From: a virus
Strand: one strand, 5' to 3'
Virus genome (UHGV): UHGV-1445333
DNA: 24,885 nucleotides
A program made the translations under genes and the position numbers. The notes beneath the pieces are model-generated. The model was not told the DNA's origin. It saw nothing but the letters and a program-made list of their open reading frames with translations, and ran no database searches. This document shows positions 11,738-19,561 of the stretch, one piece after another. Each line of letters begins with the position of its first letter. The first letter of the stretch is position 1.

Positions 11738-12336
11738 GCGGCCTCACTTCTGCTATTTCGCAGGTCTTTGAGTTTCTGTTGGTACTCTGCCTTGATCGCC
11801 TTGCACTCTTCGATAGTCCAGCGATGGCGGTTATGGTTTGATTCGATTTCGTCTACTGCTTCCTGCCCGATGCGGCTAATCAGTTCGACGCGATACGGAA
11901 CGAGATTTCCGCTTTTGTGCTGGTTGCACACCACGCATTGCTTGTGAATATTGCGTTCATCAAATCGGAGTTGAGGTGCCGCAGCAGTTGTCCGGTAATG
12001 TCCGGCATCCCACTGAGCAGACGTGAGCGTTCCGCACGAGATACATGGTAAGTCGCGGTCTCTTTCTCTGATGAAGGCGTTTACGGCTTGTTGGGCTTGT
12101 TTAATCCAGTAACTGCGGGGCTTTAAGGCGAGTTTTCGAATCTTAAGTTTATCTTTCTGTTTCTGCTCCTCTCGTCGCCGTTTCTTCTCTGCTGCTTTTT
12201 CCGCTTTTTCGCGTTCTTTGCTTCGTCGTTCGAGTGCTATCTTTGTTCCACAAATCTCATTACACCAATATTGATTTTGATATTTTGGTATAAACCATTC
12301 ATTGCAACATTTACATTTCCTTCGATAGATTCGCAT
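11734..12336 (-). CDS. ninG: NinG (Rap) recombination endonuclease, about 200 aa, with a divergent N-terminus
   Basis: From [18 protein letters not shown]... to the C-terminus it matches lambda NinG from memory; start set at ATG 12336 (strong SD AAGGAG, 5-nt spacer); the first 28 residues ([29 protein letters not shown]) differ from lambda but keep the Cys pattern. Confidence 0.8.
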
Positions 12337-12850
12337 AAGTGCTCCTTTCGTTGCCGGAAAAATCACCGTAATACTTATCTCGGGCTTCTTCAGCAACTAG
12401 TACCGCTAACTCCAGATCATCAAAGCATCCGAAGTGTTTACTCTTGCCATGGAAACCTAGCCTAACATTCCATTTTTTCTGTCGTTTGTGCCAAGTAACT
12501 CCTCTGCAACCTGATTTGCTATTCTTTCGGATCCTTATATTTCTTGAATTTTCTATTGGCAGGCATTCTCTTAAATTTTCTGGCCTATTGTCGGTCCTAA
12601 TTCCATTAACGTGGTCAATTTGACCAGCAGGCCAACGATTATGAGTTATGTAAAAAACTAAGACGTGAGTTTTATATCTACGCCCATCTATCATGATCAT
12701 TGAATAACCGTTGGAATCAAAAGTTCCAGCAACACTATTTAATGCTATCCTTCCCTGAGTGGGAACTTTCCATCTAAATACCCCGGTAGATTTATCGAAA
12801 CTTAGTAACTCAAATATCCTTTTAACAGTTAAATCTTCTCTTTTACGGTT
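12255..12850 (-). mobile_element. Putative endonuclease insertion cassette within the 5' end of ninG (approximate boundaries)
   Basis: About 0.6 kb of visibly AT-rich sequence carrying the HNH ORF and a replacement ninG 5' end, flanked by sequence I recognise as lambda-like (ninF/ninG start upstream, ninG from GTKIALERR downstream). Confidence 0.5.
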
Positions 12851-12877
12851 ACATCGTCTTCGCGCTGGTTTAGCCAT
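12311..12877 (-). CDS. HNH homing endonuclease with AP2-like DNA-binding domain, 188 aa, fused to the first 9 codons of ninG
   Basis: HNH motif ([26 protein letters not shown]) plus AP2-like segment ([15 protein letters not shown]...[17 protein letters not shown]); starts MAKPARRRC, the lambda NinG N-terminus, at the ATG overlapping the ninF stop; AT-rich relative to neighbours. Confidence 0.8.
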
Positions 12878-14747: not shown

Positions 14748-16628
14748 TTAATACTCCGTCACGTTTTCCTGTCGCCACGCCTCGTCATATTCCGATTTCG
14801 GCATATTGGCGATGTAGCTATATGGCGATCCTGATTCAAGTTGCAGGAACTGGTGCGATTGCTCGTCAAGGAACAACGGGACACCACCTTCCCAACCTTC
14901 GCCGTTACGTTGTTTTTCAAGCATCAAAACAGATGCCGGAGATGCCAGTAGCTGTTCGTCCTTCTCTGACATCTTTTCACCACTCTGAACTCTCTGTAAC
15001 GCTCTCTCGCGAGCCTTGTTACGCCAGATGATGAAAAGGTTGTCTGTCAGGTCTGTTATCGCTCCAGAGCCTTTTACGTCCATTTTCCCGGTTGGTTTTT
15101 CTTCGCTGTCACCTTTTCGCGAGTGAGTAACGAGAATGACGTGGGAGTTTGTTTTGTTTTTGAAATCGCAAATCGAGTCAACAAACGCCTTCTGCCCGTT
15201 ATAGTCATCGTCGCCTATGCCACATTTCATCAGGCTGTCGATGATGAATAACTGGATGCCGTATCGGCGGCGAGCGTAGTCGAATATTTCGATCAGCCTG
15301 TCGGCTTTCGCCGTTCCGGTCAGGCCAAACACCCAAAGTCTTTCGTCATAAAATTTAAATGCAGAGTCAATTTCCAGCACTGGCGGCATCTTGCAGCACG
15401 TCGCCTGACGGGTAAGGCGCTTAAGGAGAATACCAGGCTTCAGCTCAAGTGACGCGATGCACGTCTTCACACCCTGACGCATTGCCTCAAGTGCCATATG
15501 CCCGACAACCTCCGTTTTTCCGTGACCGTTCACACCATTGACCAGCGTCAACTCTGCCTCACGGAACTGGAATTTATCTGCCAGAGATTCCCACGGTGGA
15601 TTAAACAGATACTGCTGCTTGCCGTAGAAAGCGTTGATAGTGTCCTGGTAAAACTCTCGCGCACTGTAGAGTTCTTCAGGATCGAAGTAGGATGCCGTGC
15701 CGATGTACTGCCAGATTTCATCCTCGGTAACACCGTTCATCAGGCATTCGTTGATGTCTTTGTACGGCAGAGTAACAAGACGGCAACGATGTTCACCGAG
15801 TCGGCTTGCGATTTCCCTTGCGGCTTCACGACCAACATCATCAACGTCCATCGAGATGAATATTTCCTCAAACCTGTCGAGGTTGTGGTACTCAAACTCA
15901 ATCCACTGTTGCTTAGCGCCTTTCCCGCCACCAAACGGCACGGATAACGCCGAGATGCCGTATTGCGCATAGCTCATACAATCAATTTCGCCTTCGCAAA
16001 GTACAACCGCCCTCACGCCAGCGTCCAGAGCCTGCCATCCGAACAGACAAGGTTCGCAATCACCTTCTGCCATAATGACTTTCTTCCCGTCCGGGCGCTC
16101 AGTGCTGATTCGCTTGACCTGCAACAACTCACCATCGCGTTTGTACGGAAGCACCAGTGCATCAAGTTCTCGTTCTCCATTCCACACCTTGCCGCTGACA
16201 ACCTCGTAGCGCTTTACGACTTCTGGCGATATGCCACGCGATTGCAGGTACTCAAGATGGGATTCTGTTCTGGTAACGTAGCGGGCGATTTTCTTGCGGT
16301 CAGGTCTGGAGAATTTCTTCTCACGTCTGGCATCGAAATGGTGATCGTCATCCTTGATTCCGAGAAAGGCTTTCGCTTCCTGCATAGCCTGATGCAGGTT
16401 AATTCCACGACATGCCATCCACAAATCAAGCATGTCACCGCCGTCTCCCTCAGCGAAATCAGCCCATTTTTTCTTGCCGCTAAGGTTGACCTTAAGGCTG
16501 TTTCCCTTGTCACCGTTGACGTTACCGGCAACCCACTCATGCCCCTCTTTCTTGCCATTTGGCAACAGGTGCGGAGCCACCCTGTCAACCTGCGCCCAAA
16601 GCAGGTCGCTAAGTTCACTTGGCCTCAT
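14748..16628 (-). CDS. Bifunctional DNA primase (TOPRIM) / DnaB-family replicative helicase, 626 aa
   Basis: TOPRIM-like acidic motif (VVLCEGEIDCMSYAQYG) in the middle; Walker A (NGVNGHGKTE) and Walker B-like (LFIIDSL) in the C-terminal half; follows the O-like initiator in place of lambda P. Confidence 0.85.
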   Translation of the reverse strand: MRPSELSDLLWAQVDRVAPHLLPNGKKEGHEWVAGNVNGDKGNSLKVNLSGKKKWADFAEGDGGDMLDLWMACRGINLHQAMQEAKAFLGIKDDDHHFDARREKKFSRPDRKKIARYVTRTESHLEYLQSRGISPEVVKRYEVVSGKVWNGERELDALVLPYKRDGELLQVKRISTERPDGKKVIMAEGDCEPCLFGWQALDAGVRAVVLCEGEIDCMSYAQYGISALSVPFGGGKGAKQQWIEFEYHNLDRFEEIFISMDVDDVGREAAREIASRLGEHRCRLVTLPYKDINECLMNGVTEDEIWQYIGTASYFDPEELYSAREFYQDTINAFYGKQQYLFNPPWESLADKFQFREAELTLVNGVNGHGKTEVVGHMALEAMRQGVKTCIASLELKPGILLKRLTRQATCCKMPPVLEIDSAFKFYDERLWVFGLTGTAKADRLIEIFDYARRRYGIQLFIIDSLMKCGIGDDDYNGQKAFVDSICDFKNKTNSHVILVTHSRKGDSEEKPTGKMDVKGSGAITDLTDNLFIIWRNKARERALQRVQSGEKMSEKDEQLLASPASVLMLEKQRNGEGWEGGVPLFLDEQSHQFLQLESGSPYSYIANMPKSEYDEAWRQENVTEY

Positions 16629-16732
16629 GATTCCCTCAGATTGAAATTTTTAAACCAGAAATCGACAAACGAAATACTTAACCAGCCGTGGTTATAACCA
16701 GCGACCAGTAGCGATTTGATTTTTGATTTCAT
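16625..16732 (-). CDS. Possible 35-aa micro-ORF bridging the O and helicase genes
   Basis: Read by hand: ATG 3 nt after the O stop, TGA overlapping the helicase ATG (ATGA); product MKSKIKSLLVAGYNHGWLSISFVDFWFKNFNLRES; weak SD. Confidence 0.25.
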   Translation of the reverse strand: MKSKIKSLLVAGYNHGWLSISFVDFWFKNFNLRES

Positions 16733-16735
16733 GGT

Positions 16736-17596
16736 TCACCTGTCGAAAAACACGTAGCCAGTTTTCGATACGGTGATTGCGGATGATGGTTTGGATTGTG
16801 GTTGAATAGTTTCTGGCTTCTCGTCGTTCCAGCGTTGACCGTTCAGGTAGCTCGATGGTAACAACCTGTCGAATCCGAACTGCTTACCATTCCTGCATGC
16901 GATGTCTTCTGCCAGCATCGTGGCAAACTCGCTTGCCGTACCCCTGGTAGTTTTACGCCATTCCCTGAACTGTGTTCTGAATGCCGAAGCTGCGTTTTTC
17001 TTCCCGGCCTTCCGCATGCCTGCACACCAGAATATTTCCTCGAATGCCTTGTCGGTTTCTTCGTGACGGTCAGGTGATTTTTCACACTCCGTCCGAACAC
17101 TTTCGGACATAGTGTTTTTATTATTTCTTTTTTCTTTTGTAATAGTTTCTTTTGTGTGTCCCTGTTTTGGTGACAGCGCTGTCACCGTTTTGGTGACACT
17201 TTTTGTCACCAATGCAGTGACATTATCACCAGAGTAGTGACACCCTTCGATTTGCCATTCCTCGATGTTCTTGTTAGGCCCGATTTGCTGGCCTTCGCGA
17301 AGGATAACCTTCATCGCGATAAGCTCATTCTTGGCTTTGTTTACCTTCTGTCTTGGCAGCCGGGTAATTTGAGCTAACTGACTATCAGAGATGCGATCCA
17401 TCTTTTTACCGTAGCCGTATGTTTTACGGCATATGGCGTGGGCAACCTTGCTCTGATTTTTCGTTAAATCTGCGCCGATAAGCTCTTCATACAGGGCATT
17501 TGCAAGACGGGTATAACCATCTTCAACTTCTGCCACACGACGCTCCACAGGCCGTTGTGAAGGCCTTAAATGTGTTACGGTTGCAAGATTACTCAT
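16736..17596 (-). CDS. O: Replication initiator, lambda O-like, 286 aa
   Basis: N-terminal domain [55 protein letters not shown] aligns with lambda O (DGYARLSNMLLEAYSGADLTKRQFKVLLAILRKTYGWNKPMDRITDSQLSEITKL); iterons lie inside the gene as in lambda. Confidence 0.82.
17105..17246. repeat. Replication origin: four iterons with a roughly 22-23 bp period plus an adjacent AT-rich tract, inside the O-like gene
   Basis: GGTGACAGCGCTGTCACC (17169-17186), GGTGACACTTTTTGTCACC (17192-17210), GCAGTGACATTATCACC (17214-17230), GTAGTGACACCC (17235-17246); AT-rich 17105-17160 follows in the direction of O transcription, as in lambda ori. Confidence 0.6.
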
Positions 17597-17735
17597 GACC
17601 TTTCTCCTTCTGCATCAGCTTCACTTTTTCCAACTCAGCCCGGAATCGACCAGGCTGCTTGAAGCTGGACAGGAAGCGATCACGTAGTATGTGTTTGTGA
17701 ATTTTGTCCTGGTAAGGACTGAGTTGTTTTGTCAT
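17589..17735 (-). CDS. Hypothetical 48-aa protein between cII and O
   Basis: Read by hand: ATG at 17735 with SD AGGAG (5-nt spacer); product [48 protein letters not shown]; its stop overlaps the O start region. Confidence 0.4.
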
Positions 17736-17769
17736 AATGACTCCTGTGGATTGATCCAGTCTTTCTACA

Positions 17770-18048
17770 TCAGGCCTCGAAGAATTCGCCGTTCTTCGGG
17801 GCTTTTTCTTTTGTCAGCATTCTGGCTACTTTCTTAGCCAGTTCCGCCAACTCCTCGTCTTCAACACCCCATTCAAGAACAGCCAGAAGCATTCCCATTT
17901 TTGGGATAAAGCTGTCTTTCCATCGCGAAATTTGCGATTCATTGATCCCTAATGCATCAGCAACCTTTCGCTGACCACGTACAGCAATTCGATTCAGGAT
18001 GTTGCTTGTAATTGCATTCGCTTTCTTGCGAGTACTTGTAAGTTCCAT
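17770..18048 (-). CDS. cII: CII transcriptional activator, 92 aa
   Basis: Track ORF trimmed to ATG 18048; upstream TAAGGAAATACTTACAT matches the lambda cII leader I recall; SQISRWK...[13 protein letters not shown] core matches lambda CII. Confidence 0.85.
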
Positions 18049-19192: not shown

Positions 19193-19561
19193 ATGGTTGG
19201 AACCGCTATAGCAAGCTTTTTTGGGATGTTGGCAATCTCGACAATTTACGGCTTAGCGCATGCTTTTATTGCGAAATCTCTATCAGAAAAAATAAGCCAG
19301 GCTTGGGCGCATAGATCAGCTCGTTTCATGATTCTGGTGATCATAGCAATACAAGGGATATCTGCATTTATCCTCTATGGATCAAGCTTATACCTATTGT
19401 ATCAAGGCGCGACATTTACGCCTTACACCAGTGATTACGGAACTCTATACGATGGTAGTGAAGACATCACTGTGGCTTGGATCGTCTTTGGTTTATCTAT
19501 GGCCGTGTCTGTTGTAGCAGACATCATTAAGGTAATTCTCGTCTTAACCTTCGCTGACTAA
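19193..19561 (+). CDS. Membrane protein (3 predicted TM helices), 122 aa, directly downstream of cI
   Basis: Strong SD AAGGGGG 5 nt before ATG; 18-nt gap after cI, same strand, no intervening promoter seen; three hydrophobic segments; occupies the lambda rexA/rexB position. Confidence 0.6.
   Translation: MVGTAIASFFGMLAISTIYGLAHAFIAKSLSEKISQAWAHRSARFMILVIIAIQGISAFILYGSSLYLLYQGATFTPYTSDYGTLYDGSEDITVAWIVFGLSMAVSVVADIIKVILVLTFAD

Follow-up and report, generated by a model that had tools for sequence, protein, structure and literature searches.

Gene content and context of the locus

The stretch of DNA that we analysed, 24,885 nt in full and referred to here as the window, was found to be a mosaic P22/HK620-like phage genome displayed in reverse orientation. 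An initiator gene of 286 amino acids lies on the minus strand at 16736-17596. It encodes a replication protein of the lambda O family (Pfam PF04492, Phage_rep_O, E = 1.2e-37, amino acids 20-114) and contains the very probable origin described below. Its identity to the genes labelled 'replication protein O' was 99.3% for Sf101 and vB_EcoP-720R6 and 98.5-99.1% for mEp043 and SEN22.

Genes on the minus strand were observed in the order cro, cII, orf48, O and primase/helicase, with a cI-type repressor gene divergent from them on the plus strand. Upstream of the initiator gene we found cII (Pfam Phage_CII, E = 2.4e-42) and a 48-amino-acid ORF (orf48/DUF2740) reading in the same direction as the initiator. 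On the downstream side, a 35-amino-acid ORF separates the initiator gene from a phage primase/helicase of 626 amino acids (14748-16628, minus strand) containing Toprim and DnaB-like ATPase domains (Pfam Toprim_2, AAA_25 and DnaB_C; PHROG 239, E = 2.6e-171). Judging from the co-occurrence of the two genes, this primase/helicase is presumed to be the partner recruited by the C-terminal domain of O. With respect to gene arrangement only, the locus occupies a pR-operon position downstream of cro and cII, as in origins of the ori-lambda type, and an origin in this position would be open to transcriptional activation, as lambdoid origins are.

An array of four inverted repeats within the initiator gene

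The hexamer GTGACA was found on the plus strand at 17170, 17193, 17217 and 17237, and TGTCAC at 17180 and 17204. These six of the window's 17 exact GTGACA/TGTCAC matches are packed into 73 bp, while the maximum in any 90-bp span was three half-sites across 1000 dinucleotide-preserving shuffles of the window. All of the half-site elements listed in an initial annotation of this DNA were present, and their clustering was far from chance. A degenerate half-site, TGTCCC at 17157-17162, had been overlooked.

The array could be split cleanly only as four 19-bp inverted repeats of the form TGTCAC-N7-GTGACA, each with at most one mismatch. All four iterons are given here in the sense of the minus strand. 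Iteron 1 (17224-17242, TGTCACTACTCTGGTGATA) has one mismatch in its right arm, and both 6-nt arms of iteron 2 (17204-17222, TGTCACTGCATTGGTGACA) are exact. Iteron 3 (17180-17198, TGTCACCAAAACGGTGACA) is a perfect 7+7 inverted repeat with an A-tract spacer, and iteron 4 (17157-17175, TGTCACCAAAACAGGGACA) has a degenerate, lambda-like right arm. This arm, AGGGACA, is part of a conserved block and is itself lambda-like in almost all members of the family, and homology to lambda picks up again inside iteron 4. On the sense strand the iterons start at 17242, 17222, 17198 and 17175, a spacing of 20, 24 and 23 bp. The period of 22-23 bp given initially did not agree with the measured distances of 23, 24 and 20 bp.

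When up to two mismatches were allowed, TGTCAC-N7-GTGACA gave five matches in the window against an expectation of 0.86, and four of the five were the adjacent iterons. The remaining iteron-like 19-mer (16508-16526) carries two mismatches and was judged a chance match, given that 0.86 such matches are expected.

Register of the binding units

The wrong register is easily picked by eye in an array of abutting palindromes. The initial annotation had named as iterons two perfect palindromes, GGTGACAGCGCTGTCACC at 17169-17186 and GGTGACACTTTTTGTCACC at 17192-17210. Both are present as written, but each is a junction composed of the right arm of one iteron and the left arm of the next. The first (arms GGTGACA and TGTCACC around GCGC) is the joint of iterons 4 and 3, and the second (the same arms around CTTTT) is the joint of iterons 3 and 2. 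Its count of four palindromic iterons was confirmed but its boundaries were not, as the third site in that register has a spacer of 1 nt and the fourth is a lone half-site.

The origin reading could nevertheless be right with the junction palindromes, GGTGACA-N4/5-TGTCACC, as the binding units and initiator dimers seated on the junctions. Two of the junctions are perfect 7+7 palindromes in which the arm centres are separated by 10-11 bp, roughly a helical turn, and the junction spacing is itself well conserved (a gap of 5 bp between iterons 2 and 3, and of 4-5 bp between iterons 3 and 4). Junction palindromes, however, form automatically wherever two palindromic units abut, and this register leaves orphan half-sites at both ends of the array in addition to the site with the 1-nt spacer. 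Comparison across relatives also argues against it. In the six loci with both arms exact (the window, Aeromonas, Serratia, two Arsenophonus and Photorhabdus), a left arm and its right arm were always 13 bp apart, whereas the step from a right arm to the left arm that follows it was variable at 7, 10, 11 or 16 bp. Similarly, in nine TGTCAC-class loci from E. coli, Proteus, Serratia, Yersinia, Photorhabdus, Arsenophonus, Aeromonas and a metagenome, the arm distance within a unit was always 13 bp, with gaps of 1, 4, 5 or 10 bp between units. A profile of 31 distinct iteron sites showed high information at T1-A10 and G14-A19 and about 0.2 bits immediately outside; these sites were chosen by their arm pattern, which inflates the information in the arms, while the 13-bp spacing was obtained from exact matches and is free of this bias. 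The junction centres carried almost no information and differed in sequence (GCGC, GAGG, GGCA, AGGG, GCCC).

Relative to a conserved Trp codon, the left arms lie at +15, +35, +59 and +82-83 and the right arms at +28, +48, +72 and +95. The same offsets recur in phages with TGTTAC half-sites (Midgardsormr38, phiEt88) and in phages with TGTCTC half-sites (N7, Pocitis76, Bas106). The footprinted iterons of lambda match the 19-mer register, and the CAAAAC A-tract spacer of lambda is common to both (PMC7466680). We consider binding units centred on the junctions improbable, and on comparison of the sequences the TGTCAC-N7-GTGACA units are the homologues of the 19-bp inverted repeats bound by lambda O.

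There is likewise only a slight chance that both registers are functional, with dimers also bridging adjacent iterons or sliding by half a unit. Each arm of an iteron doubles as one half of a junction palindrome, and the spacing at the joints of iterons 2/3 and 3/4, about one helical turn, is kept across the family, so dimers could bridge iterons in this way. The initiator would then coat 86 bp as one continuous head-to-tail filament in place of four separate dimers.

Variation within the closely related population was also examined. Among 80 IMG/VR loci at 99% identity, the arms of the 19-bp units were not measurably more conserved than the spacers, with variable positions at 2 of 48 in the arms, 3 of 28 in the spacers and 2 of 10 in the gaps, and variation on this scale is too small to be informative. 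It is therefore only the deep comparison that shows purifying selection on the arms.

Coding content of the repeats

The repeats encode amino acids 119-147 of the initiator. Iterons 1 to 4 start in codon phases 1, 3, 3 and 2, respectively, and the peptides they give are CHYSGDN, NVTALVT, SVTKTVT and LSPKQGH. A VT..VT peptide is produced by iterons 2 and 3 only, which are 24 bp apart. The earlier description of the iterons as encoding a repetitive linker peptide thus applies to these two and fails for iterons 1 and 4. Since the four units are read in three different codon phases, the repeat exists at the level of the DNA, and the repeat in the linker peptide is a by-product.

The converse explanation is that the repeats are the shadow of a VTK-like peptide linker selected in the protein, having no role in cis, with the origin located elsewhere. 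The region does encode a repetitive peptide, and related initiators also have repetitive linkers. This explanation is difficult to reconcile with units whose differing phases give unlike peptides and with an inverted-repeat symmetry that is meaningless for a peptide, in a linker that is predicted to be disordered. The linker peptide moreover shifts in step with the recognition helix among relatives (see below), and the homologous segment of lambda is a genetically defined cis-acting origin (PMC6022878). We regard a repeat selected for its peptide as very improbable.

A/T-rich tract and flanking palindrome

As had been noted initially, transcription along the minus strand passes from the repeats into an A/T-rich tract. 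The tract spans 52 bp (17105-17156), is biased towards A on one strand and is presumed to be the DNA-unwinding element. It has 20-25% GC in 40-nt windows, with 77% A+T overall and 62% A on the sense strand, and it holds two copies of ACAAAAGAAA 15 nt apart (17131-17140 and 17146-17155). In the first 49 nt, 37 positions are identical to the A/T-rich region of lambda. The tract aligned column for column with lambda, ES18, Proteus phage V3 and PhiR12_1, and from the spacer of iteron 4 onwards the sequence (CAAAACAGGGACACACAAAAGAAACTATTACAAAAGAAAAAAGAAA) is almost identical in these four phages and the window.

An imperfect palindrome with no assigned strand lies beside the tract at 17084-17115. 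Its 14-nt arms (17084-17097 and 17102-17115) are 86% complementary and are separated by 4 nt. The palindrome is common to ES18-type O genes and has the same position as the palindrome beside the A/T-rich tract of lambda. It was kept in 64 of 66 IMG/VR loci, with the remaining two carrying a lambda-type C-terminus, and where these loci vary, the changes are confined to the loop and to positions beyond the core stem.

Palindromes followed by T runs on the plus strand could also be intrinsic terminators antisense to the initiator gene, or operators for another regulator. A consensus scan did return terminator-like hairpin-plus-T sites on the plus strand at 17168-17187, 17180-17198 and 17091-17108. 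With 7-8 pairs the stems are short, and they arise as a by-product of palindromic iterons combined with A-tract spacers; the lambda origin would score the same pattern. Furthermore, the consensus scan found no promoter-like site on the plus strand upstream, within 16400-17168, that could supply such terminators with a transcript, and Rfam gave no match in the window. We give either role, terminator or operator, very little credence. A CRP site was considered separately and rejected, as on our reading of the sequence the spacing of the half-sites is unlike TGTGA-N6-TCACA.

Predicted DNA-binding domain and half-site specificity

The portion of the initiator gene upstream of the iterons (17243-17596, minus strand) encodes a predicted N-terminal winged-helix DNA-binding domain (amino acids 1-118), with a predicted recognition helix at amino acids 82-94. 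An AF2 model built with a 32-sequence alignment had pLDDT values of 72-95 for amino acids 30-115; the model as a whole was moderate, with a pTM of 0.37, and the N-terminal domain itself was confident. The modelled domain contains helices at 46-60, 71-78 and 82-94 and a beta hairpin at 98-107, corresponding to an H1-S1-H2-H3-wing topology. In a Foldseek search of the PDB, the best matches to this model were winged-helix domains (ST1889, CRP/FNR, MarR), with weak E-values of 0.03-0.1. Almost all of the top 50 PDB matches were DNA-binding transcription factors, mostly of the CRP/FNR and MarR families, and none reached E <= 0.001. No solved relative emerged when the PDB was searched by sequence and by profile, the best profile match being the winged-helix protein 2d1h at E = 0.26. 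Based on the model, a winged-helix fold is likely for this domain.

The iterons, the A/T-rich tract and the palindrome together encode amino acids 121-173, for which pLDDT was low in the AF2 model. This origin-encoded segment is predicted to be a disordered interdomain linker between two folded parts, and its low confidence agrees with lambda O, for which a 'flexible linker' has been described (PMC6022878).

Each iteron class had its own sequence at residues 79-87, where the putative recognition helix begins. The sequence RLPRQKVNK was found together with TGTCAC iterons in the window and in every homologue examined (57-89% overall identity), which included Cronobacter, Citrobacter, Serratia, Proteus, Photorhabdus, Xenorhabdus, Yersinia, Arsenophonus and Aeromonas. 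RISRSKANI (ISRSKANIAKNELI) pairs with TGTTAC-like half-sites, GLSRQNVNK (LSRQNVNKAKKEL) with TGTCTC half-sites and KLSRQAVSL (LSRQAVSLAKNTLI) with TGTCAG/T half-sites, while in lambda KLPVKRCNE (LPVKRCNEAKLEL) pairs with TCCCTC half-sites. The helix class tracked the half-site class in more than 20 loci, showing that the iterons and the initiator's predicted recognition helix change together in sequence. The TGTCAC, TGTTAC, TGTCTC and TGTCAG series, together with the matching changes in residues 79-87, could represent a readable recognition code for this initiator family.

Modularity and distribution

The N-terminal half of the gene with its iterons (17124-17596) was found at 99.6% identity in the plaque-forming PhiR12 phages, where it is followed by a lambda-type O C-terminus and then gene P. 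The C-terminal half (16736-17169) was found again in ES18, epsilon34 and g341c, where lambda-type iterons precede it and a primase/helicase follows. Elsewhere the TGTCAC module precedes DnaB-like helicases or DnaC/IstB-like loaders, so that the same N-terminal domain and iterons were observed joined to four different helicase or loader partners. The two halves of the gene are exchanged independently, and the C-terminal domain co-varies with the helicase or loader partner. The mosaic joints fall within the conserved block that extends from iteron 4 through the A/T-rich tract.

This N-terminal domain allele was present in 367 IMG/VR stretches, and in the best 80 of the 367, all at >=99% identity, the iteron block was almost invariant. 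The allele was also found in 13 phage records, with no record of phage 82 among them. The 161-bp origin segment was observed in 175 of 5426 complete E. coli genomes (about 3%). The records of Sf101 and PhiR12_1 contain no origin or iteron annotation at this position, and the E. coli matches are labelled 'replication protein' only. In the literature searched, we found no description of the TGTCAC iteron type or of the Sf101, mEp043 or SEN22 ori; the TGTCAC type may have been described before, for example for phage 82, in the 1979-81 papers on the phi80 and phage 82 origins. The same search returned no binding or replication assay for the TGTCAC iteron class.

Proposed origin function

Taken together, we propose that 17084-17242 is very probably the replication origin of this temperate, P22/HK620-like lambdoid phage, placed in the linker-coding part of its O-family initiator gene. 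By analogy with lambda, initiator dimers would bind the four 19-bp inverted-repeat iterons through the predicted N-terminal winged-helix domain, and the resulting nucleoprotein complex (the 'O-some') would stress and open the adjacent 52-bp A-rich tract. The C-terminal domain of the initiator would then bring in the phage's own primase/helicase, replacing lambda P and host DnaB. For the initiator of the window, we infer dimer binding, unwinding and helicase recruitment alike from this analogy.

The architecture of the origin is textbook lambda. The module is ordinary and widespread, and only its half-site specificity, of which we found no description, appears to be new; we see nothing conceptually new beyond the lambda paradigm. 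The analysis does provide a precise origin annotation (four iterons, unwinding element and flanking palindrome) for a module labelled 'replication protein' in the records. It also defines a natural data set in which one architecture occurs with several half-site variants and matching changes in one helix. This specificity series could be used for learning how O-family initiators read DNA and for designing orthogonal lambda-type replicons.

Comparison with known origins

As is predicted here, iteron plasmid origins (R6K pi, pSC101 RepA, P1 RepA) combine a winged-helix initiator with repeated sites beside an A/T-rich unwinding element. The repeats of these plasmids are direct, are bound by monomers and lie outside the rep gene, whereas those of the window are inverted repeats inside the gene, and the initiator belongs to a different family (Phage_rep_O).

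Among phage origins, the initial proposal of a lambda-type origin inside the initiator gene with iterons other than those of lambda was supported by positional homology to the annotated ori-lambda, ES18 ori and P22 ori. The lambda origin consists of four ITN and a 38-bp A/T-rich tract at 39034-39160 (PMC3349717). The annotated starts of ITN1-4 (39034, 39054, 39078 and 39101; NC_001416) give a spacing of 20, 24 and 23 bp, identical to that of the window. Each ITN is bound by a dimer of lambda O, a protein whose N-terminal domain binds DNA and whose C-terminal domain binds P, with a flexible linker joining the two; ori- mutations acting in cis have been mapped to ITN4 and to the A/T-rich tract (PMC6022878). 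In both phages the initiator gene itself contains the origin, placed between the parts for the DNA-binding domain and the partner-binding domain, and four inverted-repeat iterons of about 19 bp are present, the third and fourth having CAAAAC as an A-tract spacer. The two also share a near-identical block from the spacer of iteron 4 through the A-rich tract, including two copies of ACAAAAGA, and an operon position downstream of cII and oop.

Differences from lambda were observed in the arms and in both protein domains. A MAFFT alignment placed the TGTCAC of the window over the TCCCTC of lambda and GGTGA over GAGGGA. The half-site is TCCCTC in lambda and TGTCAC here, with the arms 11 bp and 13 bp apart (start to start), respectively. 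The N-terminal domain is only 53% identical to that of lambda and has another recognition helix, while the C-terminal domain is unrelated and the partners are P and host DnaB in lambda but a phage primase/helicase here.

The ES18 gp59 ori, as well as those of epsilon34 and g341c, has the same O C-terminal half at 93-95% nucleotide identity. ES18 also agrees with the window in the flanking palindrome, in the last part of the A/T-rich tract and, downstream, in the small ORF and a primase/helicase partner (gp61), but it differs in its lambda-type N-terminal domain and TCCCTC iterons, with the mosaic joint inside iteron 4. The P22 ori in gene 18 has the same architecture and the same offsets from the conserved Trp codon, and differs in its TTTACC/GGTAAA-type half-sites and its DnaB-like helicase, gp12. 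In GenBank, the corresponding homologous parts of ES18 gp59 and of P22 gene 18 each carry a rep_origin feature described as 'similar to lambda'. In Stx phages the iterons are inside O and the initiator forms dimers (PMC7466680); 933W and P27 have six lambda-type iterons versus the four observed here.

The closest relatives were Sf101, mEp043, SEN22, vB_EcoP-720R6, PhiR12_1-5 and 175 E. coli prophages, in which the O N-terminal domain is 100% identical at the amino acid level and the iteron block is the same. Sf101, mEp043, SEN22 and 720R6 share the whole gene at 98.5-99.3%, while the PhiR12 phages have a lambda-type C-terminal domain and gene P instead. The TGTCAC half-site and the 53% identity of the N-terminal domain to that of lambda set the window apart from the lambda specificity group (lambda, 434, 21, ES18 and the Stx phages) and place it in a specificity group other than rep-lambda. 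Its location within the initiator gene, four iterons, A/T-rich tract, type-specific covariation and operon position are those of an origin of the ori-lambda type.

Iteron number and the A/T-rich tract

The motif ACACAAAAGA was observed directly following iteron 4, within 17131-17156 in the window and at the homologous positions of five loci in other genomes (L004, L090, L091, L093 and L095). A second copy, ACAAAAGA, was found 14-15 nt beyond the first in lambda, P22, ST104, 4A7 and the window, while N7 kept the first motif and carried only a degenerate second copy (AGACAAAAGA) approximately 22 nt on. The repeated motif may play a functional role in DNA unwinding; alternatively, ACACAAAAGA and ACAAAAGA may reflect nothing other than conserved HTK(D/E) codons.

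Natural origins of this class that lack one unit, and so have three iterons, were observed in Photorhabdus kayaii (L101) and Ca. Arsenophonus phytopathogenicus (L102), with the arrays located approximately 15-90 nt downstream of the conserved Trp codon. The gap between iterons 1 and 2 was 10 bp rather than 1 bp in both Arsenophonus loci (L100 and L102). Because two iterons adjoining the A/T-rich tract suffice for lambda in vitro (PMC7466680), these three-iteron origins may, by analogy, still be functional. An additional iteron-like 19-mer with 2 mismatches (TGTCACCGTTGACGTTACC) was observed in the window at 16508-16526, where it falls near the 5' end of the primase/helicase coding sequence, and is probably meaningless since 0.86 such matches per window are expected by chance.

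Genes and RNA loci around the initiator gene

The start of the initiator gene is overlapped by a 48-aa ORF (17589-17735, minus strand) corresponding to P22 orf48 (DUF2740). This ORF carries the PHROG 1913 label 'tail protein', and in the RefSeq versions of the Sf101, mEp043 and SEN22 genomes 'tail protein' appears next to 'replication protein' among the features given for the match. The label looks like a propagated mis-annotation, as the ORF sits between cII and O.

Upstream of the initiator gene we also observed an oop-like antisense RNA locus (17728-17812), with the RNA predicted on the plus strand. Positions 17728-17760 (minus strand) exactly match the published conserved pO/5'-oop block (PMC3349717), and a strong terminator hairpin with a T run (17772-17804, plus strand; fold z = -3.9) overlaps the 3' end of cII. 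No Rfam family covering 17728-17812 was found.

Elsewhere in the window, an HNH endonuclease ORF (12311-12877, minus strand; PHROG 99, E = 1.4e-71) was embedded in the nin region between the NinB-side genes and NinG, and is possibly a mobile homing-type insertion. A 122-aa ORF of unknown function (19193-19561, plus strand; PHROG 6534) was located directly downstream of the cI-type repressor on the same strand, a position where lysogen-expressed exclusion genes often sit in lambdoid prophages.

Helicase and loader partners of the module

The initiator's N-terminal DNA-binding domain and TGTCAC iterons were found upstream of four partner types (L097-L104, L002 and the window): the primase/helicase of this window (14748-16628), lambda P in PhiR12_1, a DnaB-like helicase in Aeromonas, Arsenophonus, Photorhabdus and a metagenome, and a DnaC/IstB-like loader in Serratia, Yersinia and Ca. 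Arsenophonus. A 35-aa ORF of unknown function (MKSKIKSLLVAGYNHGWLSISFVDFWFKNFNLRES; 16625-16732, minus strand; PHROG 21848), located between the initiator and primase/helicase genes with its stop overlapping the start of the latter, travels with the primase/helicase-type replication module, and gp60 of ES18 occupies the same position.
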